Shown here: one piece after another, positions 3,907-36,872 of the stretch | Numbering within the stretch: position 1 is the stretch's first letter | How the letters are laid out: every line of letters starts with the position of its first letter | Assembly: GCA_965206365.1 (NCBI GenBank) | Contig: CBDBJL010000016.1 | Coordinates: forward strand, 130,283-194,282 | Direction of reading: 5' to 3' | Length of the DNA: 64,000 bases | Source of the DNA: Alphaproteobacteria bacterium | Lineage (GTDB): Bacteria; Pseudomonadota; Alphaproteobacteria; JABAAW01; JAHZMA01 | Notes under the pieces: model-generated | What the model was told of the DNA's origin: nothing | Databases searched by the model: none | Seen by the model: the letters and a program-made list of their open reading frames with translations, nothing else | Position numbers and translations under genes: made by a program

Positions 3907-5463
3907 ATGAAAATACGAGCAACGCATGGCCTAGCCCATGCTGATTTTTATGCCTTTACCATGGCACAGGCTTTGTTTGCCCAAACAGAACATGAAATTC
4001 CAGCTTGCTTTCATGCTTTTGCTCGCAACACCCCATTTGGCGGAGCCTATATCCTTACCGCAGGACAAAGTGAATTTTTACAATGGATTCTCCATCATTG
4101 GCAAGAAAATATTGCAAATCTCATTACATTTCTGGCAAAGCAAAAAGGGATAACCAATAATCCTTTATTTCAAAAAGAATTCCTCTCCATGCTAGAAACA
4201 TCTAGGCTTACCCTAGATATAGATGCCTTGCCTGAGGGCAGTTTGGCATTTGCCAATACCCCTATTATTCGAGTTTTTGGCCCTATTTGGCAATGTTTAC
4301 TTGTTGAAGCTTACCTACTCAACACTCTCAACAGCCAAAGCATTATTGCCACCGAAGCTTCTCGTCTGCGCTATGCCGTAGATTTCAACAACCCAAAAGC
4401 CCCTAGCCTTATTATTGAAAGTGGTATGCGTCGCGCCCAAGATATTAGTGGTCTCTCGCCCACACGCGCCGCTTATATTGGTGGCACCGATGCCACTTCT
4501 AATGTTGCCGCAGCCATGGAATATGATATTCCCGCCAAGGGAACTTTTTCGCATGCTTTTGTTCAACATCATTGGTGCAATGCTCCGGGCAATGGTGAAG
4601 ATGATGCTTTTCGAAATTATCTCAGCTGCTTCCCTCAAGATAGTTATCTTCTTGTAGATACCTATAACGCGCTGAAAGGTGTTGAACGAGCTTGCAAAAT
4701 TTGCCAAAAGGGAAATTTTACCCTCCCTGGAATTCGCCTTGATTCTGGTGATTTGGCTTATTTAAGTAAAAAATCACGCAAGATTTTGGATGCTTACGGC
4801 TTTTATAACACGAAAATTGTTGCCAGCAACAATTTAAACCCACATGTTATTTATTCTTTGCGCCAAGAACAACAAGCACAAATTGATGTCTGGCTCATTG
4901 GAACCCACCTAACAGTGGCTAGCGAGCAGCCTAGCTTGGGTTGTGTTTATAAATTAGGGCAAACCTATGCAAAAACCGCACAAAATCTTTATAATTCTGG
5001 GCGTAAAGTGTTAAAAATTTCAGATGATCTCAAAAAAACAACTCTGCCAGGAGCCTTAAATTTGGTACGTTTTATCAATGAAACCGATGGTATATTTCTC
5101 AGTGATAATTTGATTAATGCCCAACAAACTGATTTTTTTATCGATAAAAATCAGCAATATCTCCAAAATGAAATGCATTGCACGCGTATCAATGCATCAC
5201 ACCAGCAAAAGAAATTTGCCAAAGGACATCCTCTTTTGTTGCCTATCGAATCTTTTATTCAAAAAGGGGCGCAGATTCGCTCAATAGAAACTGCACAGCA
5301 AGCCCGTAACCATGCAATAATATCCCTAAAACGATTAGATGATTCGCATAAAAGGCTTACCTACCCACACCTATACATTACCGCTATCGAGGCAAGCCTA
5401 CGCCAACAACAACAGGATTTGCTTGCCAATATAACATTGGCAAATGCCGATGATTTTAAATAA
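3907..5463 (+). CDS. pncB: Nicotinate phosphoribosyltransferase family protein
   Basis: ESGMRRA...GGTDATSNV...PAKGTFSHAFV matches NAPRTase active-site region. Confidence 0.6.
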   Translation: MKIRATHGLAHADFYAFTMAQALFAQTEHEIPACFHAFARNTPFGGAYILTAGQSEFLQWILHHWQENIANLITFLAKQKGITNNPLFQKEFLSMLETSRLTLDIDALPEGSLAFANTPIIRVFGPIWQCLLVEAYLLNTLNSQSIIATEASRLRYAVDFNNPKAPSLIIESGMRRAQDISGLSPTRAAYIGGTDATSNVAAAMEYDIPAKGTFSHAFVQHHWCNAPGNGEDDAFRNYLSCFPQDSYLLVDTYNALKGVERACKICQKGNFTLPGIRLDSGDLAYLSKKSRKILDAYGFYNTKIVASNNLNPHVIYSLRQEQQAQIDVWLIGTHLTVASEQPSLGCVYKLGQTYAKTAQNLYNSGRKVLKISDDLKKTTLPGALNLVRFINETDGIFLSDNLINAQQTDFFIDKNQQYLQNEMHCTRINASHQQKKFAKGHPLLLPIESFIQKGAQIRSIETAQQARNHAIISLKRLDDSHKRLTYPHLYITAIEASLRQQQQDLLANITLANADDFK

Positions 5464-19412: not shown

Positions 19413-20540
19413 TTATAATATCGGCAATGTATCATTAGCCCGTTTGGATAAATATTCTGCACCATTTTTCGTAATAACAATATTTTCTTCTGCAACCATA
19501 ATTTTACCATTCATGATTTCGATACTCGGCTCTAAAGTTAATACCATATTTTCTTCAATGATGGTTTCATCAAGTGGCGAGAAAGATGGAAATTCGGTTA
19601 ATTGCATACCCAACCCATGGCCAAACCGACCAACTTGACCCGCATCACCTTTAATAATTGCATTCATGGCAACAAAAACTTCTGCCATAGAAGCACCAGG
19701 TTTTGCAGCATGAAACCCAACATCTGTTGCTTGATATAAAATATCATAGGCATTTTTGGCTTCATCAATGGCCGAGCTAAAGGCAAAATTTCGATCAAAA
19801 TCACAATAATAGCCTTTGAGAGTTGAGCCCGTATCTAGCAACAAAATATCTTTTTCGGCAATTTTTTGCGCACAAGGTGGGGCAATAATATTATCATGGC
19901 CTTCTGGGTCAGCACCACCAACAAGATATTCTACATTATCCGCGCCTTCTTGTAAAAGTGCAATGCGAAATTTGCGAAAAACTTCCTCTAAGCTTTGCCC
20001 TTGATGGAAAAGTTCAGGTGCCCGAGCAAAGGCTCTACTCGCAATTTCACAAATATCTCGGATAATCGCAATTTCTGCTGCCGATTTCACCACTCTTAAT
20101 TTTTGGATGATCGGAGTGCAATCTATAAATTTTTTCGATAATTTTTTTATCAATAGCTGATATTTAACCATTGACATGGTTAAGCAAGTTTCTTCGCCCA
20201 TTGGCATTCCAATATTTTTATAATGAGATAATGCCTCAATTAACAAGGGAAGTTCCGGCATAGATAGATCTGGAGAGGCAAAAATACGAATATCATCAAC
20301 CCAACTTTTTTGCATAAGATTCTCGCCAATCGATGGAATAATAGCAATTGGTTTGCCGCCTTTCGGAACAATCAAATACCACGGCCTTGTCGGGCTTTTC
20401 CAAAATAAAGTGCGAAAGCCAGTAAAATACATGATTTCAGCTTCGCTGGTAAAAAACATGGCATCCATATCTTGTTGATCCATAAGGCTTTGAGCCTTGC
20501 AAAGACGTTTCTCATATTCCTCAGGTAAAAAATCTAGCAT
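19413..20540 (-). CDS. M24-family peptidase/hydrolase (Xaa-Pro aminopeptidase / creatinase / ectoine-hydrolase-like)
   Basis: Creatinase N-domain plus pita-bread motifs (DxGxxxxGYxxDxxR, HGxGxxxxE). Confidence 0.7.
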   Translation of the reverse strand: MLDFLPEEYEKRLCKAQSLMDQQDMDAMFFTSEAEIMYFTGFRTLFWKSPTRPWYLIVPKGGKPIAIIPSIGENLMQKSWVDDIRIFASPDLSMPELPLLIEALSHYKNIGMPMGEETCLTMSMVKYQLLIKKLSKKFIDCTPIIQKLRVVKSAAEIAIIRDICEIASRAFARAPELFHQGQSLEEVFRKFRIALLQEGADNVEYLVGGADPEGHDNIIAPPCAQKIAEKDILLLDTGSTLKGYYCDFDRNFAFSSAIDEAKNAYDILYQATDVGFHAAKPGASMAEVFVAMNAIIKGDAGQVGRFGHGLGMQLTEFPSFSPLDETIIEENMVLTLEPSIEIMNGKIMVAEENIVITKNGAEYLSKRANDTLPIL

Positions 20541-20543
20541 GGT

Positions 20544-21644
20544 TTATGCAGCTTCAGAGATAATCGATAAAATACGAGATTGGGCATTTAACTCTACTTT
20601 TCTTTCTATGGAAGCATAGTGGAATCCTGCAAAGCCAGCACCACCAGATGGGCTAGTGCTAAGGTTGCAAAAATCTAAATATTTGATGGCCTCTGCGCAT
20701 TCATCATCACTGATTGTCATAAAATAATCCGCATCCTCTGCCAAAGCTTGCAGAGCTAAATCAGAGGGCTCTTTGCAATCTAATCTGCCCATATTAGAGA
20801 TTTGATTGCCGACAGAAGTTTTCTTGCCCGCAAGAATGCTTGCTTGCAAACAAGGCGCAAAATCAGCCTCAACAATAATTATGATCATATCATCAGACCA
20901 AATTTTACGAAAATATTTCGCCATAGCAGAGGCAAGCCCGCCAACACCCGCTTGCAGGAAAACATGACTAGGTTCTTCGATCTGGCGGGTAATTTCATCG
21001 GCCAATGCCAAATAGCCTTCCATGATCATCTTACCACCATCATAGCCTTTCCATGAAGAATCAGATAGTAAAAACCAATTATTGTCATCGGCAGCTTGTT
21101 TTGCTCCTGCCAGCGAAGCTTCGTAATCATCGCCTTCGATCACCACAGTTGCGCCGTACTCTTCTAGCCTGGTTGCAAATGATTCAGGAACATTTCTTGA
21201 GAGATAAATTACAGCCTTGGCACCAAAAATTTTGGCACCCGCCGCGATTGAAAGCCCATGATTGCCTGCACTCGAGCAAATATAAGTTTCACCTTTTAAT
21301 ATTGTAGATAAATGTTCTTGATCCTTAATTGCATCACCAGCCCTTTCATAAGCATGGCGGGCAATAACATAGGCTGCACCTAAAGCCTTAAAACTGCCAA
21401 GCCGCATACGCGAACGCTCGTCCTTAAAGTATAAATTTTTAACATTGTAAGATTCTGCCAGTGTTTTTTGCTCACAAAGCGACGTTGGTTGAGCAATAGG
21501 GCAAAGGTTTAGCAGATAATTGACCAAAGTTGGGTCAGTAGATAAAACCCCATTCTCGCAATCATGATCAACTGGAAATGATTTTCCTCTGTAAGGGTTT
21601 GATATTATATTAATTGCAATATCTCCGATATTCATTACTACCAA
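20544..21644 (-). CDS. PLP-dependent fold-type-II enzyme, diaminopropionate ammonia-lyase / threonine-dehydratase-like
   Basis: KDERSRMRLGSFKALGAAY (PLP-lysine motif) and SAGNHG glycine loop. Confidence 0.6.
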   Translation of the reverse strand: MVVMNIGDIAINIISNPYRGKSFPVDHDCENGVLSTDPTLVNYLLNLCPIAQPTSLCEQKTLAESYNVKNLYFKDERSRMRLGSFKALGAAYVIARHAYERAGDAIKDQEHLSTILKGETYICSSAGNHGLSIAAGAKIFGAKAVIYLSRNVPESFATRLEEYGATVVIEGDDYEASLAGAKQAADDNNWFLLSDSSWKGYDGGKMIMEGYLALADEITRQIEEPSHVFLQAGVGGLASAMAKYFRKIWSDDMIIIIVEADFAPCLQASILAGKKTSVGNQISNMGRLDCKEPSDLALQALAEDADYFMTISDDECAEAIKYLDFCNLSTSPSGGAGFAGFHYASIERKVELNAQSRILSIISEAA

Positions 21645-22199
21645 AACAAGTGATTATATGATATTGTAATTTTAATTGCAATTGATTTCAATTCAATAAT
21701 GCATATATTATTCAACAATATCGCTTAATTCGCCCGTGGTTTTTGGGCTCCTAATTCTAGTATCAATCCAGAAATTTTGAAAAAAATAGTTGCTTATGAT
21801 GCAACTATGCCTTTAAAAACTTTATTCCGCGAGCAGCTACTGAAAGAATGTGGGTTTGTATCTATTGCAATTGATAAATTATGCCCCCGATGAGCCATGA
21901 GCGAGCTTTAAAATATTTTCCGTTGCCAATTCCCAAAAAACATTCCAGAAACCAAACCAAACCAAAATATTCTGGGTAAAAGGGAATATTTTTGATAATA
22001 TTCAAGTAATATTTGTGCCAGAATTGCCGTATTTCTGGTGGCAATTCATCTTTCGGGCGTAAATAATTTCCTATTGGCAAGATTGCCCCCCTAATATAAT
22101 CCGAGCATTGGATTTAGTCTAAGCAAATCGATCCCGTAAAATCATGGCAAAAATTATCGTGAAACAACAACGAAAACAAAGCTAAGCATAGAAAAGATT

Positions 22200-22356
22200 T
22201 ATGGAAATTCACCACAAAGCATTGAGCCTCTGCCCGGTAAACCAAGCAAAGGCCTAAATTATCTTAGGCGAACCTAAGAAATATCTTTCAGATGTATTAT
22301 AAAATACACCCTTACTATAGCCCTTAATCCATCCCAAACGAATTATGCTATACGAA
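22200..22356 (-). ncRNA. Candidate tracrRNA (tracr-1): long imperfect anti-repeat followed by two hairpins
   Basis: Minus strand 22353->22315 reads GUAUAGCAUAAUUCGUUUGGGAUGGAUUAAGGGCUAUAG, complementary to the crRNA repeat with a UU bulge after a 6-bp lower stem; followed by hairpins UGUAUU-UUAU-AAUACA (22293-22308) and CUUAGG-UUCG-CCUAAG (22263-22278); 3' end undefined. Confidence 0.55.
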
Positions 22357-22576
22357 ACCACAATATGTGCCAAAAACAAAAAAAGACCCACAATGCTAAC
22401 CAAAACCCATCATCAAAAACAAATTTAGAGACAGGCTCGTAATTTCATCGAACTACTAACGCCCTACTTTATCATAAATTCTAGAGTAAGACAAACCTTA
22501 TTTATCAGTTTTGTTGGAATAATCTTAACAACAAGGATAAAACATCAAATAACAAAGCATTGAGCCTCCGTAACTG

Positions 22577-22660
22577 AAAAAAAAGACTCAACTATACTTA
22601 GGCGAATCTAAGAGATATCTTTCAGATGTATTATAAAATACATATTTTCTATAGTTCCCG
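22577..22660 (-). ncRNA. Second tracrRNA-like module (tracr-2): 11-nt perfect anti-repeat at the 5' end, same hairpins, U8 terminator
   Basis: Minus strand reads GGGAACUAUAG (22659->22649, perfect complement of crRNA repeat nt 2-12), then UGUAUUUUAUAAUACA and CUUAGAUUCGCCUAAG hairpins, AGAUUC/GAGUCU stem, UUUUUUUU (22584->22577); candidate extended -10 TGTTAGAAT at 22674->22666 places the TSS at the anti-repeat. Confidence 0.4.
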
Positions 22661-22756
22661 CCGATATTCTAACATAATTTTTGGCATTTTTATTTTCTAA
22701 AAAATATTACAAAGACACCTATTAATAGATATCATCGGTGAATAAAAAGATGTAAT

Positions 22757-22764
22757 ATTGACAC
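22757..22764 (+). promoter_or_regulatory. Candidate extended -10 (TGTAATAT) for cas9
   Basis: TGn-TAATAT ~48 nt upstream of the cas9 ATG; SD AAGGAG at 22796-22801. Confidence 0.25.
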
Positions 22765-22811
22765 TTAATTGTGTATTTAAGGGGGATAAGGCGCAAAGGA
22801 GCTTCAAAGTA

Positions 22812-25800
22812 ATGGTAAAAAAACAACCCAGAAACCCTCAAAATTATATTTTAGGAATTGATGTTGGAGTCGGCTCGCTAGGCGTTGCCTTAATTGCAAT
22901 CGATGGGGATACGCCTAGAATTTTAAATGGTAGTTCGTTAATTTATCCCAGTGCAAGTGGAAATAGTGACAGGCGCACCCATAGGTTAGCGCGTAACTAC
23001 TTCCAAAATCGGACAAAACGTAAGAAATTGCTTCAGAAGAAACTAACAGAGTTTTTGCAATTACAAGGTGAAGGATATCGGATCGGGCAAACCCATATCA
23101 AACCCTATAACGCCGAAAGATTTCCCAAAGTTAAGAATAAAAAAAATAACTCTTGTGTGGCGTTACGCGCCATGGCTTTGGATGAACAACTAACTTTACC
23201 TGAATTATTTCGAGTTTTTATGCACCTTGCAACGCATCGCGGAGTCCGCCTTACCAAAGCAATCAAAGAGGCTGAGCAAAAAGAAACCGGTGTGCTGAAA
23301 CAAGCGATACAGGAATTGCAAGAGCAAATGCAAACAGCAGACAATACAGGAAAAATGATTCGCACTGTGGGTGAATATCTTGCCAAGCAAGAAAAAAAGG
23401 GTCAGGCTATAAAGTTGCGTCCAGATGCTTTTAATAAACGAGCTATTTTTCTACTCACGTGCGATGATTATCAAAGAGTTTGACCAGATTATTGCCAAGC
23501 AACAAGAATATTACCCTGAAATTTTTACACCGGAAAATATTCAACTTATAAAAGAAGGCTCTCTTAAAAAAACAATTGAAGGTAAAGAAAGAATAATTGG
23601 TTATGGGATTTTTTGTGAAAAAGGTGCGTATCAAAGCGCGATCGAAGAAAAAATTGGTTATTGTTGTTACCTTCCGGAAGCGGGGACCATAAGAGAGAAA
23701 CGAATTGCAATCGCTTCTAATTTGTTTCAAGAAAAGCGTTTGCTCGAACAAATTAATAATCTCCGTATTTATCAAGGTGCAAAAGCTGGCGGTGAAGCCG
23801 GGGATGGCAAATTAACTTTAGCGCAACGCGATCTTGTTTATGAAAACATGCTCGAGGAAAAAGAGGCGGTTAAGGGAAATAAAATTGGGAAATGGCTTAA
23901 TTTAGCCAGTAATTCTCGCCTTAATATTGATGCAAGTGGCAAAAAAAAATCCGAACAAGTGATCCAACCTCATGTAATTCTTGCCACAATCAAAAAAACC
24001 AAAAATTCTGAACTTTTTGCAACATGGCAGAGTTTAAGTGCTGAGGCGCAGGATTATGCAGTTAAATTATTGCATGATGAGGGGGAATTAGATGCAAATA
24101 TGAAAGCATGGGTAGAAGAATTTCCTGATTTTCCGCCCGATTGGATTGAAACATTACAAAATATTATTTTGCCACGAGGCTATGCGGCAACGGGCACCAC
24201 TGCCACTTCGAAATTGATTGCAGAATTACGCGCTGATGTGATTACTCATTACAAAGCTGAAATACGCGCTAAACTCAAACATCCTACATCTGAACCCACA
24301 GAAGATTATTTGCCATATTACGGAAGATTGCCCTCCTTAGAACATTATTGTCAGGGGGCAAGCAAGCATCCGGCCGAACCATTAGAAAAACAATTTGGTA
24401 AAATCCCCAATTCGGTCGTGCATCAATCACTCAATAAAATTCGCAAAATTCTCAACACCTATATTAAAGAATATGGTCCGCCACAAAAGATTCACCTCGA
24501 ACTTGCACGCGAGTTAAATAAATCACTTAAGGAACGTGAGAACGAGGATAAAAAAAATCAAAAAAATCAAAAAAAAAATACTAAATATAATGATAAAATC
24601 CTCACCTATAGGGACCGAACCTCGCGCAAATATCGACGCGCCTTAAAATTACATGAGTGGCAACTCCCTAAACAACAAAAAAAATTATACAAAGAGCAAA
24701 AATGTATTTGCCCGTATTCAGGAACAGAAATCAGCATTGATGATATTTTTACTGGCAAGGCCGAAATTGATCATATTTTGCCTTATTCTCAAACCATGCT
24801 CGATAATATTAGTAATTTGGTGTTATGCACAAAAGAAGCGAATTCGAAGAAGAAAAAGCAAACCCCTTACGAAGCTTTTTCTGGTGGCTATCCTGATGGA
24901 ACTGGTAGAACTTATGATGATATTCTCACAACGATTGCAGATTATCCAGAATATAAGAAGAAAAAATTTAATGAAGATGCGATGGCGCATTTTAAAAATA
25001 AAAATCTTTTCGCAACCAGATTTAAAACCGATACCCAGTATTTGGCAAAAGTGGTTCATAATTATTTAGGATGCTTAAAATTAAATCCTATCAACCAACA
25101 GCAAGATGAAAAGCATGAAAATAACCCTGAATCACAGCATGATGCTCAAGATAAAATCGACGGTGAAGTAAAGAAAAAAAGGATTATCTGTCTTTCCGGC
25201 GGTATTACCGCTGATCTGCGACATCATTGGGGCTTGGGCAATATCCTCCAAAATTTTGAACAAGATAGCCTCACCAGTGTCGGACGAGAAGAAATGGCTG
25301 ATAATATTAACAAAGATTTTTTGCAATATATCAAAACTAGACAAATCGATTTACAGAAACAGGCGAAAAAAAAGGTGCTCGATGAAGCTGAGCAAAAATT
25401 TCTCGCAATTAATCTTGCCGAACTTCAAACAAATCAGCGGGGCGACTGGGATGATTATGTTAAAAATATATTTAGGGATCGTGAAAATAAAGCAAAAAAG
25501 AATCGCCTGGATTATCGTCATCATTTCATTGATGCGATTGTGATCGCTTGTACCAATGCCTCGGAAGTAAATAGGCTTAATGCGGCAAATGCAAATTATC
25601 GAAACCAAAAAACCGAGAATACGCAAAGTTTTTACCAGCAAAAACAACAGCACCGAATCGAGCATTCAGGCGTTAAAAAACATCCCTTAAATTGGGTGAA
25701 TTTTTGCCAAGATGTTAAAGATTATTTGCGCGCTCATCCTAATTTAATCGTGCAAAATCCTAATTTCAACAGTGCATCGCGCCAGATCCATGAAGAAACT

Positions 25801-26823
25801 AATTATCGCAAAATTATTGATATTTATACTCAGAATAAAACCACACAAGCAGAAAATTATCTTCAATCTCTTGTATCCAGCCGACAATCTTTGGATAATT
25901 TAGTTGCAGAGAAAAGTTTTGATGCTTTGCTCCCAAAAAAAGAGGATTGGATGCAAACATTGCGCAAGAAAAACAGCATTTGTAAATCTCCGATCGGGGA
26001 TCGACCTCGATTTTCGCCGGAAGAATTGGAAATTGAAATTACAAAAATTACAGCGAAACTTGCAGTTCAGGCCGAAATCAAACAATTTTTAGAAGATAAA
26101 TTTCATGGAGCCAAGAAAGAAAAACGCGTTATTTATGAGGCAACAAAAGATAAGCTAGTAAAAGATAAAATCGTAAAAGGTGAACCCGAAGAAGAAAAAT
26201 TGGTAAAAACCTCTGTGCCAGAACAAATGGCATGGGCAATTACAGAATATAAAAACCGGAAAAGCAAAGGAGAAATTAACACAATATTTGGGCGCAAATA
26301 TTTCACAATCTATAAATATCTCACAGTGATTGAAATTAGAAATAAATCCCTTGAGACAGACTTAAAACAACAAAGACAAAATATCCCCACCCGCCCGCAA
26401 CGTGTGGTGGTAACCGGCAATAATTCGCATAGCGATATTTTCTACTATTACGATGACAATGGTGCCCGCCAGATTGGGTGGGAATGTATTGCCGTTATCG
26501 CTGTACGAAAAGCAGATTACCAACCCGCATGGCGGCAAAAATATCCTAAGGCGAAATTAATTGGGCAATTGCGCATTAATGATACGCTTCAAATTTGGAA
26601 CAATCCTGATCCCGAAGCTCCCCTGCGCAAAAGAATTTTGGTACGGGTACAGAAAATGTCGAAAGGATATATTAGTTTTTCGCACTTGCAACGTTCCAAA
26701 ACCGAAAATATGAGTGCTCCTTATCGGAAAGTTTCATCCATTGGTCTTTTTCAAGCTTTTGCACCCAAATTGGTCAAGCGTGATGTTACGGGCAAGGTTT
26801 ATTATCATCGTAAATTATATTAA
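22812..26823 (+). CDS. cas9: Cas9 (type II-C), ~1336 aa, interrupted by a +1 frameshift in a T5 tract at 23443-23447
   Basis: RuvC-I GIDVGVGSLGVALIA, Arg-rich bridge helix RRTHRLARNYFQNRTKRKK, RuvC-II KIHLELARE, HNH EIDHILPYSQTMLDNISNLVLCTKEANSKK, RuvC-III HHFIDAIVIACTN; ORFs 22758-23483 and 23425-26823 join seamlessly if one T is removed (..NKRAIF|YSRAMIIKEF..). Confidence 0.85.
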
Positions 26824-26836
26824 AGGAAGCTATTTT

Positions 26837-27748
26837 ATGTGGAGAATTTTGGATATTGGGCAAGATCATCGAAGCTTGTTGGTAAAAAATCATCAATTAG
26901 TGATTAAAAATAACACAGCATCTTCTAAAAATATTCTAGCAACTCTGAATTTTAACGATCTTCATGCCATTATTCTCCATGGTCATGGCATCTGGTTAAG
27001 TCGAAATGTGCTGGATCAGGCAGGTGAACATAATATTCCTGTGATTATTTGCAATGCCCAGCATATTCCCCAAACCATAACTCTGCCCGTAGTAGGGCAT
27101 TATCATTATCAGCAACGCGTTCATGGGCAAATTACTATTACACTTGCCCGACGTAAGGGTTTGTGGAAAAAAATTGTTCAAGCCAAAATCAAGGCACAAG
27201 CCTATTTGCTGAAATCTTATCAATTGCCCGAAGCCGATAGGCTGGAAGCCATGTTGGCAAAAGTTCTTGCTGGTGATGCGAATAATCACGAGGCCCAAGC
27301 AGCTCGTATCTATTGGCAGGCATTATTCGGCAGTGATTTTCGACGCAATATCGAACAACCAGGGCTAAATGCACATCTGAATTATGGTTATGCAATTTTA
27401 CGCGCATCGGTAGCGCGCTTTATTGTGGCATCGGGTTTATTACCCGCAATTGGGCTGAATCACCATAATAAGCTGAATCCATTTTGTTTTGTGGATGATG
27501 TTATGGAACCATTTCGCCCGTTAATTGATCGGTTGGTGCGTACGCATCATAAGCCATTTGCCAATCGGGTGACTCCTGAAAATAAAGCAATTTTAAGCGA
27601 TATTATCAATCACCAGCTCTATTATCGTGACGAAAATATTTCAGTGCAACATGCGGTTCAAAATTTATGCCATAGTTTTGCCCAGATTTTTTTAGGGGAA
27701 GAGAAAAATCTTGCCTTACCACCCATTATTTTTACCAATCAATTATAA
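26837..27748 (+). CDS. cas1: Cas1 integrase
   Basis: Conserved LNYGYAILRA and ...GLNHHNKLNPF... motifs; starts 14 nt after cas9 stop with SD AAGGAAG. Confidence 0.9.
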   Translation: MWRILDIGQDHRSLLVKNHQLVIKNNTASSKNILATLNFNDLHAIILHGHGIWLSRNVLDQAGEHNIPVIICNAQHIPQTITLPVVGHYHYQQRVHGQITITLARRKGLWKKIVQAKIKAQAYLLKSYQLPEADRLEAMLAKVLAGDANNHEAQAARIYWQALFGSDFRRNIEQPGLNAHLNYGYAILRASVARFIVASGLLPAIGLNHHNKLNPFCFVDDVMEPFRPLIDRLVRTHHKPFANRVTPENKAILSDIINHQLYYRDENISVQHAVQNLCHSFAQIFLGEEKNLALPPIIFTNQL

Positions 27749-27749
27749 T

Positions 27750-28076
27750 ATGCTATCGGGATATAAAACAATGTGGCTATTTATCATGTTTGATTTGCCA
27801 ACTAGCAATCGGGCTGAAGCCCGTAGTGCGAATCAGTTTAGAAATCACCTGTTACAAGAAGGTTATATTATGAAACAATTTTCTGTTTATATGCGTTATT
27901 TTGACAGTAAAAATCGCGCAAATTCGTCGCTTAGCCGAATTCAGCAGAAAATTCCACAACAAGGTATGGTGAGTGCATTATTTGTTACGGATCGACAATT
28001 TGGGCAAATTCAGAATTTTTATGGCAAAAAACCCAAAAAAAACGACGAGAAACCGACCCAATTACTGTTATTATAG
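27750..28076 (+). CDS. cas2: Cas2
   Basis: MLSGYKTMWLFIMFDLP... N-terminus typical of type II Cas2; ~108 aa; immediately precedes the array. Confidence 0.85.
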   Translation: MLSGYKTMWLFIMFDLPTSNRAEARSANQFRNHLLQEGYIMKQFSVYMRYFDSKNRANSSLSRIQQKIPQQGMVSALFVTDRQFGQIQNFYGKKPKKNDEKPTQLLLL

Positions 28077-28148
28077 GGGAATTATGTGCATTTTTTACAC
28101 GAATAAATCCCTGGAAACCATTTCATATCAAGGGTTTCCAGGGATGCT

Positions 28149-28910
28149 AGTATAGCATACTTCGTTTGGGATGGGAACTATAGCATTATTTTCAAAAGCC
28201 GATATTCCATAATAAGTATAGCATACTTCGTTTGGGATGGGAACTATAGCTACCAATACGTTGCATTTGCCCAAGAAATCAGTATAGCATACTTCGTTTG
28301 GGATGGGAACTATAGCTTGCGGCTCGTATTTTGGTAGAACAATTAAAGTATAGCATACTTCGTTTGGGATGGGAACTATAGCAAGATAATCCAAAAATCC
28401 ATGTTAAAATCAAGTATAGCATACTTCGTTTGGGATGGGAACTATAGCATCAACCATTCAATCACTGCAGCAAAGTCAAGTATAGCATACTTCGTTTGGG
28501 ATGGGAACTATAGCTAGCAACAGTGCCAGCAATGGTAAAACGCAAGTATAGCATACTTCGTTTGGGATGGGAACTATAGCAAAATATGATCAAGGGGTTC
28601 GTGACGTTTAAGTATAGCATACTTCGTTTGGGATGGGAACTATAGCATCAAACAGCAACAAGCTTGGCAAATAACTAGTATAGCATACTTCGTTTGGGAT
28701 GGGAACTATAGCCAACGCGGGTTTCGCCGTAAGCTTGCTTGGAGTATAGCATACTTCGTTTGGGATGGGAACTATAGCCAACAGGCAAATGCAAGTTCGA
28801 CATTGTTGAGTATAGCATACTTCGTTTGGGATGGGAACTATAGCTAGCAACAGTGCCAGCAATGGTAAAACGCAAGTATAGCATACTTCGTTTGGGATGG
28901 GAACTATAGC
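28149..28910 (-). CRISPR. CRISPR array: 12 identical 36-nt repeats (AGTATAGCATACTTCGTTTGGGATGGGAACTATAGC on +), 11 spacers of 30 nt; transcription inferred on the minus strand
   Basis: Exact 66-nt periodicity, repeats start at 28149+66n; minus-orientation repeat GCTATAGTTCCCATCCCAAACGAAGTATGCTATACT ends in an extended -10 (TGcTATACT), like the Neisseria II-C repeat promoter; spacers 6 and 11 identical. Confidence 0.95.
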
Positions 28911-29443
28911 TCGTTTACGGTAATATCGTAAAATGGTTCTATGCGTTCTAGTTTTTTAGTCCTTTCTTGGGGGTTAATTTTACCGTCTCCGTCTTCATCG
29001 CCTTTTAAAAAGGCTTCTTGTAGTGCTTCATGGGCACTGCAATCAACCGCTTGTGGGTCAAAATTCCAAAAGCGGTCGCGTAAATGTTTTTTTATTAAAG
29101 CTGATACTGTCCTTAGCTCGCAGGTGATGTTGGTTAGATGCTGAACGCACGTATCGCAACCAACAACACCCGATAGGCTTGCCACTGTCCCCGTAACCTC
29201 TGCCATACCGTCAAGATCCGCAACAGTTTCAGTGATCCCGGCTTCGATATCTCTAAATGTAGAGGATTGTTGCCGTGCAACATTGGTAAGGTTAATGCCG
29301 TTATTAGCAATAGATAATAAGTGTGCTGTATTTGCTGGGTTAGCATAAGCTTTAGCTATTTCATAAAGTGGTTCACCATAGCGCAAGGTAATGAAGGATA
29401 AGATAATGGCAAGATAAAGCGATGAATGGTTGGGCTTTTCCAT
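28904..29443 (-). CDS. Hypothetical protein with canonical EF-hand Ca-binding loop (DEDGDGKINPQE)
   Basis: 12-residue EF-hand loop with D1,D3,D5,G6,I8,E12; ORF terminates 2 codons inside the last CRISPR repeat. Confidence 0.4.
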   Translation of the reverse strand: MEKPNHSSLYLAIILSFITLRYGEPLYEIAKAYANPANTAHLLSIANNGINLTNVARQQSSTFRDIEAGITETVADLDGMAEVTGTVASLSGVVGCDTCVQHLTNITCELRTVSALIKKHLRDRFWNFDPQAVDCSAHEALQEAFLKGDEDGDGKINPQERTKKLERIEPFYDITVNEL

Positions 29444-29474
29444 GATTAAAGAGTCTTTTTATGTGGGTTTTATT

Positions 29475-30035
29475 TTATTTGGGGTTAATTACTTTATTAT
29501 AAATTTTTAAATATTTATGTCCGTTTGTAATTTCAGAATTTAACAAACAATTATTTTGATCAAAAACATAGATTGCTTTTTTTTCACCATCTGCTGTTCC
29601 TGCTGTACCAATAATTAATGCGCTAGTGCCGTTGCTTTTGGTGATTTGATTAGCAACAGCAAGAGCCGCGCCTTTGCTTACATCTAACGTCTTGAACGGA
29701 TTAAAATCAGACGCAACCTCTGCTTTAGACTGATATTGCTTGCAACCCTCTGATGCTTGCGCATTAACCATAATTAAAAAGGTAATGCCAGTAATCATGA
29801 AAATTATGGCTACAAAACGATAGATAACATTCATTACTTTGGTAATGCCAGTTTCATCCCTATAGGCTTTGCAAATTAGCGGGTGGATAATATTTTCGGT
29901 GATTACATATCGGATTCTTTTAAATACAAAACTGCCTGTATTAAGCAAAAAAATGCCAAAATTACATAAAATGATATTCATAGCTTTTGTATCAAGCTGG
30001 TTGCCGATAAGTAGTCTTTTGGTAAGGTTATTCAT
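29475..30035 (-). CDS. Hypothetical small secreted/membrane protein (possibly VirB5-like by position)
   Basis: Internal start MNVIYRFVAIIFMITGITFLIMVNAQA|SEGCKQY gives a Sec-type signal; lies immediately downstream of the virB4 fragment. Confidence 0.3.
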   Translation of the reverse strand: MNNLTKRLLIGNQLDTKAMNIILCNFGIFLLNTGSFVFKRIRYVITENIIHPLICKAYRDETGITKVMNVIYRFVAIIFMITGITFLIMVNAQASEGCKQYQSKAEVASDFNPFKTLDVSKGAALAVANQITKSNGTSALIIGTAGTADGEKKAIYVFDQNNCLLNSEITNGHKYLKIYNKVINPK

Positions 30036-30192
30036 TATATATCTCCTTAATGAAGGGTTAAAGAAAAAGGTATGTTTTGATAGCGCAAAAAATATGCCAA
30101 AAAATGTATGATAATGATGTGATTTAATTATTTGTTTATTTTATATTTATATTTGTCTAAGCATTCCTCCGCTTGTGCAGGGTTAGTTAAAA

Positions 30193-31233
30193 TTATATAT
30201 ATTGTTGTTGCCAGCTTTCTGGATTCAATTCTTTTAGCATATTTACTTTTTTTACAGCTTCAGCCCCGCCTTCAAAGGTTTTAAGCGCGTTGCCTAAGCC
30301 TATTAGGTTAATGTCTATGAAAGTTGATTGGGTATATTCTTCGTCTTGACGTTTGATTAGAATGGGTCTAACCGCGCCTCTAATCTCAAAGTTTCCTAGT
30401 ACAAATTCTTTTTCGGTTTCAGTAAGTTTAAATTTATCTAATTCTTCAGGATTATCTGACGTTCTAGGAAAGAAAATAAATGTTTGAGTATTGGTAATTA
30501 ATGAATTGCTGGTTTTGCCTAAGTTTGTGAGTCCTGAAACTTCTTGAAAGATAAGATTAAGAACACCATTGGATTTTCTGATGGTTCTGATATATTGTTG
30601 GATTTGCTCGGCGAAAAATTTATCTTGTAGCAAGGTTGCGCTTTCATCAACAATCATTAATGAAGGTACTGAATTAGTTTCGCAATGATTTTGTATTTTG
30701 GTAAGAAAATATGAGATTAATACTCGGAATAGATTTTCATCTTTTATGACTTCATCCATGCCGGATGCCATAAATTGACTATTTGCAATATTAAAACTAT
30801 CATGAATTCCATGAAAAATTTCCTTATATTTGCCGTCTGCGAAAGGACGTAAAAGGTCTTTAAATTTGCTTTGTGGGATGGCTTTGTACCATGTTTTTTT
30901 GAAGGTGGTTTTTTCAAGAGAGAACGAATTTTGAATAGATTCTTGGATGATTTCTTCGTATTCTGTATTATTTACAGAGATTCCAGCAATGGTTTTAAGA
31001 AAACTTGTTAAATTTTGTACATATAGAGATTTATTAGGAATATCAAATGGATTTAGATCTAATTTATCAACGTTTAACATTAGATATTTACCGTCAATTA
31101 CTTTACTGAATACTTCCATGCCTCGCTTAATATCAAATCCATAGACTTTTAACTTTCTGTAGCGTGCGATTGCTTGAGCCGCGAGGAATAATATCAAAAC
31201 TGTCTTCCCACTGCCTGAGGGTGCAAAAATCAT
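30193..31233 (-). CDS. VirB4/TraC/TrbE-family type IV secretion ATPase, C-terminal domain only (N-terminal ~440 aa missing)
   Basis: Walker A FAPSGSGKTVLILFLAAQ (cf. VirB4 G-P-T-G-S-G-K-S-V-L-L-N-F-L), Walker B LMIVDES, RKSNGVLNLIFQE and TQTFIFFP motifs in VirB4 order; first Met 3 nt from an orphan CRISPR repeat. Confidence 0.6.
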   Translation of the reverse strand: MIFAPSGSGKTVLILFLAAQAIARYRKLKVYGFDIKRGMEVFSKVIDGKYLMLNVDKLDLNPFDIPNKSLYVQNLTSFLKTIAGISVNNTEYEEIIQESIQNSFSLEKTTFKKTWYKAIPQSKFKDLLRPFADGKYKEIFHGIHDSFNIANSQFMASGMDEVIKDENLFRVLISYFLTKIQNHCETNSVPSLMIVDESATLLQDKFFAEQIQQYIRTIRKSNGVLNLIFQEVSGLTNLGKTSNSLITNTQTFIFFPRTSDNPEELDKFKLTETEKEFVLGNFEIRGAVRPILIKRQDEEYTQSTFIDINLIGLGNALKTFEGGAEAVKKVNMLKELNPESWQQQYI

Positions 31234-31236
31234 GCT

Positions 31237-31272
31237 AGTATAGCATACTTCGTTTGGGATGGGGGCCATAGC
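31237..31272 (-). repeat. Orphan degenerate CRISPR repeat (33/36 identical), 2.3 kb beyond the array
   Basis: AGTATAGCATACTTCGTTTGGGATGGGGGCCATAGC versus consensus ...GGGAACTATAGC; the embedded TGcTATACT -10 is intact and points into the virB4 fragment. Confidence 0.85.
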
Positions 31273-33117: not shown

Positions 33118-35604
<2,487 letters not shown>

Positions 35605-35663
35605 TTAATTTTTAGAAAAAACACAATTCTTCTGCAAAGAATATGCACAGAAAATTAGTAACC

Positions 35664-36872
35664 CTAATCTAACTTATAATGAAGGTATTTGTCATCTAAA
35701 TACTGCAGAAAAACTGCATCTGTACCCGTAAAAAACAACTGAACATCCAAATGCAACAAATAATCGTATAAAAATTGTAAATGCTGAGAATCAAGATGGG
35801 CCCCAATATCATCAAGTAATAAAATTGGACGCGGCCCCATCTCACCAAGCATTAATTGTAATTGTGCCAAAATTAACGAAAGCAAAATAATTTTTTGTTC
35901 CCCTGTTGAGCAAGATTGCGCCAAAACAGAGAAAGATTTAGCTTCAGAGCCAAAATCTTTGTTGCCAAGATCAGAATGAGAAGGACATTGATAATATCGA
36001 ATAACAATATCAGTTAAATGTACCCCATAATGGGTTCGATTATAGGTTTGGTCACGCTTTCGATTATCGAATAATTTTTGCTGATAATCTTGTTCGCCTT
36101 GAACCGCCCCACCATCCAAAATTTTAGGGTCATTGCCGCCGGTTAGCTCCATGATAATGCTAGGGAAATTGACAATTTTTGGTATATGGGTAATTTGATT
36201 TAATCGAAAAACAATCTGCTTGCGCATCACCGCAATCGAAACCGCTCGCATTGCCATTTCTTGCTCGATAATATCCAACCAAGTTTTATTCCCTCCTTGC
36301 AGTAATAAAATTAATCGCTCACGCATTTGTTGCTCGTAAGCTTTCAGCCGACCATAATGACTTTTATCAAACAAAATAGCCGTGCGATCGATGAATTTCA
36401 ATCGTGCCATCCGTCCATCTTGAAATAACCGCGCCATTTGGGGAACATACCATAACATTCGCAAATGTTCATCTAAAGCTTGTTGTGACGATTTCTCATT
36501 GCCGTTAATCATAATATGGCGACGTTTTTGATGGAAACTATTTTCCGAATTTTGCTGACACGAAAACCCTGTTGCCAAACGCGTTAATTGAGCATTATTG
36601 GCAACAACCGCCTGAATTCCCCAATCACGGATCAGTCGTGGCGATGTTAATTCTGGATTTGCCAAAGCATCATTGGGGTGAACCGCAAAGGGCAGAATAT
36701 CTTCCAGTTTTGCATTTCGTAACCCCCGGCCTGAAACTAAAAATGATAACGCCTCTAAACAGTTGGTTTTGCCAGCACCGTTACTTCCTGTAAACAGAAC
36801 CACACGACTCTCTGTAGCAAATTGTGCTTGCCGATGATTGCGAAAATGAGAAAGTGAAAATTCCTTAATCAC
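35664..36872 (-). CDS. recF: DNA replication and repair protein RecF
   Basis: Walker A GSNGAGKTNCLEAL; conserved position between dnaN and gyrB. Confidence 0.9.
   Translation of the reverse strand: MIKEFSLSHFRNHRQAQFATESRVVLFTGSNGAGKTNCLEALSFLVSGRGLRNAKLEDILPFAVHPNDALANPELTSPRLIRDWGIQAVVANNAQLTRLATGFSCQQNSENSFHQKRRHIMINGNEKSSQQALDEHLRMLWYVPQMARLFQDGRMARLKFIDRTAILFDKSHYGRLKAYEQQMRERLILLLQGGNKTWLDIIEQEMAMRAVSIAVMRKQIVFRLNQITHIPKIVNFPSIIMELTGGNDPKILDGGAVQGEQDYQQKLFDNRKRDQTYNRTHYGVHLTDIVIRYYQCPSHSDLGNKDFGSEAKSFSVLAQSCSTGEQKIILLSLILAQLQLMLGEMGPRPILLLDDIGAHLDSQHLQFLYDYLLHLDVQLFFTGTDAVFLQYLDDKYLHYKLD

Follow-up and report, generated by a model that had tools for sequence, protein, structure and literature searches.

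Type II-C CRISPR-Cas9 systems, described for example in N. meningitidis, C. jejuni, and alphaproteobacterial loci, have a minimal cas9-cas1-cas2 operon. The anti-repeat of their tracrRNA is found most commonly upstream of cas9 (PMC3737331). Tracr anti-repeats are thought to derive from CRISPR repeats (PMC3737331, PMC6546382). In II-C guides, the spacer-proximal base of the repeat is paired (usually as G:U), a junction of A or AA follows, and the nexus hairpin is found within 1-3 nt; the median hybrid energy is -39.4 kcal/mol (PMC6546382). Transcription of the array against the cas operon has been documented in N. meningitidis and C. jejuni (PMC3737331).

The window analysed here (the whole stretch of 64,000 nt) contains a locus with this same minimal operon. 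The locus consists of cas9 (TIGR01865; 22812..26823, plus strand), cas1 (type II, NMENI-type; 26837..27748, plus strand), and cas2 (27750..28076, plus strand), all identified by NCBIfam profile matches, and an array of 12 repeats. cas9 is read in two frames, with a repaired product of 1336 aa. Neither csn2 nor cas4 nor any fourth cas gene exists among the ORFs of the locus, and the ORFs next after the array are unrelated to CRISPR-cas. Because csn2 and cas4 are absent and Cas1 is of the NMENI type, the locus is classified as minimal type II-C.

Upstream of cas9, the minus-strand interval 22214..22353 (hereafter copy A) is very probably the tracrRNA gene of this minimal type II-C locus, judging from its sequence. 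It comprises an anti-repeat and a tail; its ends are approximate, and it stops at a 17-nt block that is common to a second, paralogous copy (copy B). Copy A is located 459 nt upstream of the cas9 ATG and is divergent from cas9, at the commonest II-C position. A tracrRNA candidate on this strand, divergent from cas9, had been proposed in the preliminary description. The anti-repeat, the fold, and the related loci all support it, with the addition that copy B lies between the candidate and cas9.

The anti-repeat of copy A (39 nt; 22315..22353, minus strand) is defined by complementarity, and the sequence quoted earlier for 22353 to 22315 is present as read. The first 25 nt (22329-22353) are identical to GTATAGCATACTTCGTTTGGGATGG at 24 of 25 positions, inverted relative to all 12 repeats of the array and to a degenerate orphan repeat. 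A search for this 25-mer allowing up to two mismatches, for which the chance expectation is 0.00, matched only the repeats, the one orphan repeat, and the copy A site. The pairing with the crRNA repeat that had been described is strong: RNAduplex gives -49.7 kcal/mol for the minus-orientation repeat against the copy A interval, compared with a background of -10.1 +/- 4.9 kcal/mol, calculated for 45-nt windows along both strands of the entire window. The duplex is thus about 8 sd from the background, and stronger scores are found only for the array and the orphan repeat.

The form of this duplex differs in part from what was first drawn. The long imperfect upper stem is present, while the 6-bp spacer-proximal stem with a UU bulge represents another way to draw the lower part. 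In the minimum-energy duplex the lower stem has 10 bp (G1:U, six Watson-Crick pairs, U8:G, U9:G, and C10-G). It is followed by a 5-nt bulge, AUUAA, on the tracrRNA side (22329-22325), and then by 14 bp, a 1x1 mismatch, and another 10 bp. Note that the lower stem of copy A (GGGCUAUAG) needs two G:U pairs with the present repeats. The spacer-proximal G1 of the crRNA pairs with U22314, the AA junction is at 22313-22312, and hairpin 1 begins directly after it. The likeness to known Cas9 guide duplexes is supported; the G:U closing pair, the AA junction, and the hairpin at the nexus position are those of the II-C guide rules.

The tail of copy A is highly structured. For the 157-nt minus-strand RNA the fold energy is -52.5 kcal/mol (z = -4.6), and none of 200 shuffled sequences is as stable. 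Both hairpins reported earlier exist. Hairpin 1 (UGUAUU-UUAU-AAUACA; 22293..22308, minus strand) is at the nexus position and can be extended to a 9-bp stem over 22311-22290. It is followed by a GAAAGA motif (UCUGAAAGA; 22284..22292, minus strand), whose homologues are GUCGAAAGAU and AUCGAAAGAU in two related loci, L010 and L003, respectively. Hairpin 2 (CUUAGG-UUCG-CCUAAG; 22263..22278, minus strand) is capped by a UNCG loop, and its counterpart in relatives is the terminator hairpin. After these two comes a third hairpin at 22225..22254 on the minus strand, with a 13-bp stem (GGCCUUUGCUUGG/CCGGGCAGAGGCU) and a UUUA loop (-27.4 kcal/mol, z -4.5). Since the stem of hairpin 3 is followed by CAAUGCUUUGU, it has no canonical U-tract. 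The terminator scan found no canonical hairpin with a U-tract after copy A and gave only a weak alternative at 22269-22252, in agreement with the earlier remark that this copy has no evident U-run terminator. Terminator prediction is regarded as supportive but not essential for tracrRNA calls (PMC3737331).

At the other end of copy A, a promoter-like site, TTGGCA-17-TAGCAT (22345..22373, minus strand), agrees with the consensus at 9 of 12 positions; it is a consensus match only. The start predicted from this site is near 22338, inside the anti-repeat, which would leave ~25 nt. Transcription starting inside the anti-repeat is known for C. jejuni (PMC3737331). In a permissive Rfam scan of 20000-30000 at E <= 10, no family matched the tracrRNA region, the tracrRNA model gave no match at all, and what was returned could be dismissed as noise (an S15 leader below threshold and miRNA models). 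The Rfam tracrRNA model covers only a subset of Cas9 lineages, and for this reason the miss is not counted against function.

The CRISPR array (28149..28910) consists of 12 identical 36-nt repeats (AGTATAGCATACTTCGTTTGGGATGGGAACTATAGC) and 30-nt spacers, and one of its repeat-spacer units is duplicated. In the promoter-consensus scan, TTCCCA-17-TATACT with a preceding TG is found on the minus strand in all 12 repeats. The extended -10-like element, which is a consensus match only, forms the end of the repeat facing the next spacer. None of the plus-strand promoter-like sites reported by the scan has such a per-repeat pattern. Because this element ends every repeat on the minus strand, the array is predicted to be read from the minus strand, i.e., towards the cas genes. 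The predicted crRNAs would have a guide of ~23-24 nt plus the repeat, whose part begins GCUAUAGUUCCC. Copy A is encoded on the strand able to pair with such minus-strand crRNAs, which fits the strand predicted for the tracrRNA. [quoted passage not shown]

The orphan degenerate repeat is located at 31237-31272 and is split from the array by 2.3 kb of foreign-looking genes. Its duplex with copy A has an energy of -54.9 kcal/mol, compared with -49.7 kcal/mol for the present repeats.

The tracrRNA region was also compared with related Cas9 loci. The best non-self match of the Cas9 protein, in an Alphaproteobacteria MAG, has 46% identity, and most other matches, which are typical II-C proteins, have ~27-31% over about half of the query. 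The loci compared were L001 (Alphaproteobacteria MAG GCA_022599575), L002, L003/L004, L005, L010, and L012. In six of six related loci one minus-strand tracrRNA is found ~70-150 nt upstream of the cas9 start. The comparison with tracrRNAs of related Cas9 proteins, which the preliminary description had pointed to, thus places the element at the same position and on the same strand. In relatives the tracrRNA exists as a single copy of 85-97 nt, and TTGACA-17-TAnnnT promoters are clear in several of them. In each element the anti-repeat and the AA junction are followed by a small hairpin and then by a GC-rich hairpin with a UNCG cap; in most of the loci a U-run comes next. In the four loci with a readable repeat, the anti-repeat binds its own repeat more strongly than the repeats of other relatives. 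Hybrid energies in relatives range from -39 to -60 kcal/mol.

The repeat family AGTATAGCA...GGATGGAAGCTATAGC is near-identical in L001, L002, L003/L004, and the window. The counterpart of hairpin 1 in L010 is CUGUA-GAAA-UACAG, made of other bases than the UGUAUU-UUAU-AAUACA of the window, and a GAAAGAU motif is common to the window, L003, and L010. When seven sequences of the UNCG hairpin were aligned, 97% of positions were paired and five of five pairs had changes on both sides, although the segments had been selected visually as hairpins, a choice biased towards pairing. The loop has the same U, C, and G in every sequence, and the sole unpaired cell is the closing pair of copy B. Unlike its relatives, the window has two copies, its UNCG hairpin is short, AU-rich, and not followed by a U-run, and a hairpin of 13 bp is added. 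No second copy of the tail is found in L001, L002, L003, or L005, and no tracrRNA was recognisable by eye in the upstream region of L011. Searching the genome collection with the Cas9 protein yielded no relative. With the repeat-based DNA pattern, the only matches there were to the L001 lineage and to a sister MAG with a stretch that ends short of the tracr region. Neither of two metagenome searches for repeat and anti-repeat patterns was informative; L013 was discarded as a chance match in unrelated sequence.

The paralogue, copy B, is found at ~22552..22659 on the minus strand, 334 nt nearer cas9 than copy A. It lies between copy A and cas9, directly beside the predicted cas9 promoter. On the minus strand there are two versions of the tail (22248-22320 and 22582-22654), with 82% identity over 73 nt, and gapped similarity between the two copies extends from the anti-repeat through to the 17-nt block. 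A 28-nt block and this 17-nt 3' block (GAGGCTCAATGCTTTGT; 22568-22552 in copy B, minus strand) show no difference between the copies and occur nowhere else in the window; the stretches around them have diverged. Both copies also keep a 3' hairpin, in different register. Due to the perfect conservation of the two blocks and the retention of this hairpin, both copies may be under selection.

Other parts of copy B are reduced, and its hairpins are less stable than those of copy A. Its anti-repeat remnant GGGAACUAUAG (11 nt; 22659-22649, minus strand) is an exact match to the present repeat; outside copy B this sequence is found in the repeats only, with a chance expectation of 0.02. Hairpin 1 (22642-22627, minus strand) is present and the GAAAGA motif is also kept. 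The UUCG hairpin (22612-22597, minus strand) is weakened, with its closing pair lost. A run of eight U residues (22584-22577, minus strand) is situated in the loop of the 3' hairpin, not after a stem. The duplex of copy B with the crRNA has 11 bp only, without the G:U closing pair, and its energy of -19.7 kcal/mol is ~2 sd from the background. The fold of copy B is no better than that of shuffled sequences (z -0.3), in contrast to copy A (z -4.6). A possible extended -10 element, TGtTAGAAT, is seen by eye at 22666..22674 (minus strand); it has no -35 match, so it is absent from the scan report. An RNA starting from it would begin at about the first G of GGGAAC, at the anti-repeat remnant. Spacer 1 has its best match in the whole window at 22643-22679, in the anti-repeat region of copy B, with a score of 27 that is reached by 2 of 300 shuffles. 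Other spacers score 26-31 elsewhere in the window, and the spacer 1 match is a borderline case of ordinary score.

The most likely reading of copy B is a paralogue in the course of degeneration that may still be expressed. There is a small chance that it is instead a second functional tracr-type RNA, with an 11-nt anti-repeat and its own extended -10 element, which loads Cas9 via the lower stem or competes with copy A. If it did compete for Cas9, it would tune the system from beside the cas9 promoter. For such a functional copy B, the lower-stem-only duplex would be too short for RNase III. The two anti-repeats also differ in how they fit the repeats. At crRNA position 8, the orphan repeat and the repeats of relatives alike carry C, presumably the ancestral base. 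Because copy A pairs better with the orphan repeat and the remnant of copy B equals the present consensus, the sequences suggest that copy A preserves an earlier state and accommodates drift of the repeats via wobble pairs, while the remnant of copy B may have been refreshed from the array.

In cas9, one extra T in a T5 run at 23446-23450 shifts the frame. With this T removed, a Cas9 of 1336 aa is obtained that is colinear with the relative across the junction. The public protein from the same contig is the truncated form of 1119 aa; it comes from the same assembly and is not independent. cas1 and cas2 are intact, as are the other long genes checked (gyrB, recF, and cobQ). The extra T may be either an assembly error or a real inactivation, and present Cas9 activity is uncertain because of the frameshift.

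Several other explanations of the interval have to be weighed against a tracrRNA gene at copy A. The one with most weight overlaps with it: the gene would be a tracrRNA gene by descent in a locus that is decaying as a whole and no longer functional. The +1 T frameshift in cas9 with its truncated public protein, the separation of the array from the degenerate orphan repeat by foreign-looking genes, the duplicated repeat-spacer unit, and the degenerate tracr copy all speak for such a locus. Yet the 12 repeats remain identical, cas1 and cas2 are intact, and cas9 is otherwise open and colinear with its relative. Furthermore, an error of one base in a homopolymer could be an assembly artefact, and gyrB, recF, and cobQ are intact. 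General decay is accordingly given a minority share of the probability. It is much less probable that copy B (22552-22659) is the working tracrRNA and copy A a silent or recent duplicate. Copy B does occupy the position of the single tracrRNA of relatives, 130-170 nt from the cas9 ATG. Its GGGAACUAUAG is a perfect complement to the present repeat that is found nowhere else outside the array, and a U8 run and a plausible extended -10 element are present. Engineered single guides work with a repeat:anti-repeat duplex of ~12 bp, which also counts for a working copy B. These points are outweighed by a crRNA duplex of only 11 bp, at -19.7 kcal/mol far from the -39 to -60 kcal/mol of relatives, by the missing G:U closing pair and UUCG closing pair, by a fold like that of shuffled sequences, and by the placement of the U8 run in a hairpin loop.

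The remaining explanations take the anti-repeat differently. The preliminary description had named a decayed ancestral CRISPR repeat as the alternative. The interval would then have no RNA function and could be, for example, a remnant of an old array. The interval is indeed repeat-derived, and an orphan degenerate repeat exists elsewhere in the window. However, copy A has the opposite orientation to the array, from which it is separated by the cas operon. Its tail is unusually stable and is duplicated with the 28-nt and 17-nt blocks identical, and the same kind of structured tail is conserved at the same position in six related loci. A mere remnant is therefore very improbable. Least credible of all is a tracrRNA read from the plus strand at the same anti-repeat, with the array co-transcribed with the cas operon. 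Complementarity is symmetric between strands, and in many type II systems the array runs in the same direction as cas (PMC3737331). Against this, the plus-strand RNA of 22315-22470 is unstructured (-8.6 kcal/mol, z = +0.2), the promoter-like elements of the repeats are on the minus strand only, and hairpins and the U-run are on the minus-strand side in all relatives.

Copy A is thus taken as the working tracrRNA. A tracrRNA, the helper RNA without which Cas9 cannot use its CRISPR guides, is required in every type II system; the element is therefore ordinary and expected, and its place and form agree with the II-C rules already established. What is peculiar to this locus is the paralogue in tandem, the additional hairpin, and the absence of a U-tract. 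Against this reading, most relatives carry a U-run terminator and copy A is without one; the ancestral position is held by copy B, not copy A; and with cas9 frameshifted the RNA may have no working partner. With copy A as the tracrRNA, the crRNAs would come from minus-strand transcripts of the array that run in the direction of the cas genes. Each transcript would probably start within a spacer, driven by the extended -10 element at the end of the repeat before it, an arrangement shared with N. meningitidis and C. jejuni. Copy A would be transcribed as well, into an RNA with ends near those given above. The 5' part of the crRNA repeat (GCUAUAGUUCCCAUCCC...) would then pair with its anti-repeat to form the 10-bp G:U-closed stem, the tracr-side bulge, and the long upper stem. 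The handle bound by an active Cas9 would be composed of the AA junction, the hairpin at the nexus position, the GAAAGA motif, and the UUCG hairpin, and the 13-bp hairpin 3 probably marks or stabilises the 3' end.

With Cas9, the crRNA direction, and the tracrRNA, the parts list would be complete for a Cas9 lineage 46% identical to its nearest database relative. These three parts are what is needed for the design of a single-guide RNA and a test of the enzyme. The tandem pair is also a small natural experiment in tracrRNA evolution, with a full bulged anti-repeat in one copy and the lower stem only in the other, and shows how much of an anti-repeat can be lost. Together, the cas9 frameshift, the split array, and the tandem tracr pair may record a locus in decay.

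Compared with known systems, copy A is like II-C tracrRNAs in its G:U-closed lower stem, AA junction, hairpin at the nexus position, and 3' hairpins (PMC6546382). It is unlike them in having a tail of three hairpins without a U-tract terminator and in existing as one of two tandem paralogues. There are precedents for a second anti-repeat or tracrRNA in one type II locus, as in Lactobacillus gasseri (PMC3737331) and among alternative tracrRNAs (bioRxiv 10.1101/2020.09.02.279885). Such extra anti-repeats have been explained by duplication or a second acquisition (PMC3737331; bioRxiv 10.1101/2020.09.02.279885). While the L. gasseri pair is found at different positions of its locus, the copies in the window are in tandem, 334 nt apart on one strand, with a homologous tail.

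In S. pyogenes, tracr-L is reportedly a natural single guide that represses the cas9 promoter (Workman et al. in Cell, 2021). tracr-L and tracr-S of S. pyogenes are two transcripts of one gene, whereas the window has two gene copies. No tracr-L-like guide is apparent in the leaders of copies A and B. They have no match to the cas9 promoter region of at least 10 nt (all 10-12-mers compared with the window gave scattered, chance-level matches), and no fold-back guide was identified in them. The likeness to S. pyogenes is that more than one tracr-type RNA could arise beside the cas9 promoter, since copy B abuts the predicted promoter. Small CRISPR/Cas-associated RNAs (scaRNAs) are another kind of accessory RNA, found in Francisella and Neisseria (PMC6199352, PMC13431127). 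Copies A and B were rejected as scaRNAs: they have the same sense as each other and both are complementary to the repeat, i.e., they are tracr-like and not tracr-complementary. A scaRNA-like feature, a solitary repeat-derived element outside the array, fits instead the orphan repeat at 31237-31272, which pairs with copy A.

The window is chromosomal, as gyrB and recF are found on the minus strand (33118-36872) within a few kb of the CRISPR locus; its overall G+C content is 39%. Beyond the array of 12 repeats (28149-28910), a degenerate CRISPR repeat exists alone on the plus strand at 31237-31272. It has 3 mismatches, all of them in its lower-stem-forming end. The 2.3 kb between the array and this orphan repeat (28911-31236) contain three ORFs, all on the minus strand. 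One of these encodes a TraG/VirB4-like P-loop ATPase, which is truncated at the N-terminus and whose start is located 4 nt from the orphan repeat. This layout looks like that of an array split through the insertion of conjugative-element DNA.

A comparable arrangement is found in the sister genome of L001, a related Cas9 locus from an alphaproteobacterial MAG. Contig CBDBHZ010000005.1 of this sister genome carries a perfect repeat that stands alone, far from the array of 17 repeats (features at about 4040-4170 in stretch L006, and at 631-666 and about 850-990 in stretch L007). Near-identical stretches of about 70 nt adjoin the end of the array as well as the solitary repeat, which suggests that this array has also undergone an insertion or rearrangement.

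Within the array itself, a 102-nt repeat-spacer-repeat unit is exactly duplicated (28479-28580 and 28809-28910), and spacer 6 is therefore the same as spacer 11. Spacer 1 (28185-28214), which is next to cas2, has its top match in the 64-kb window at 22643-22679, the anti-repeat region of copy B (the degenerate tracrRNA-like paralogue nearer cas9). The match comprises the blocks TATTTTC, GCCGATATTC, and CATAAT, separated by the repeat fragment TATAGTTCCC and TAA. The score of 27 is reached by 2 of 300 shuffles and other spacers score similarly elsewhere in the window; the match is borderline. If real, it could mark a former self-targeting or recombination event.

The cas9 gene (22812-26823) is split into two frames by an extra T in a T5 run (23446-23450). 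Removing one T restores a Cas9 of 1336 aa, colinear with a 46%-identical relative. The split could be a genuine inactivation or a homopolymer error of the assembly. Just downstream of the tracrRNA candidate (copy A) on the same strand, minus, is a 72-aa ORF (21862-22080) whose ribosome-binding site is G-rich and which has no match in Pfam; a canonical terminator comes after it (21786-21808, minus strand). Transcription read through from copy A could reach this ORF.

The interval separating cas2 from the array contains a strong minus-strand hairpin followed by UUUAUU (28092-28145; -26.5 kcal/mol, z -6.2), and similar hairpins exist at the equivalent place in L006 and the related loci L001, L002, and L003/L004. 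It is probably a terminator of minus-strand transcripts exiting the array, or a two-way terminator. All 12 repeats include TTCCCA-17-TATACT with TG upstream on the minus strand. By consensus match, this promoter-like element within each repeat is of the Neisseria/Campylobacter style, and the predicted promoters imply that crRNA production may be independent of processing. The orphan repeat retains the extended -10 element and its predicted pairing with copy A amounts to -54.9 kcal/mol, making it a possible source of a scaRNA-like RNA, as in Francisella and Neisseria, or of an "extraneous crRNA".
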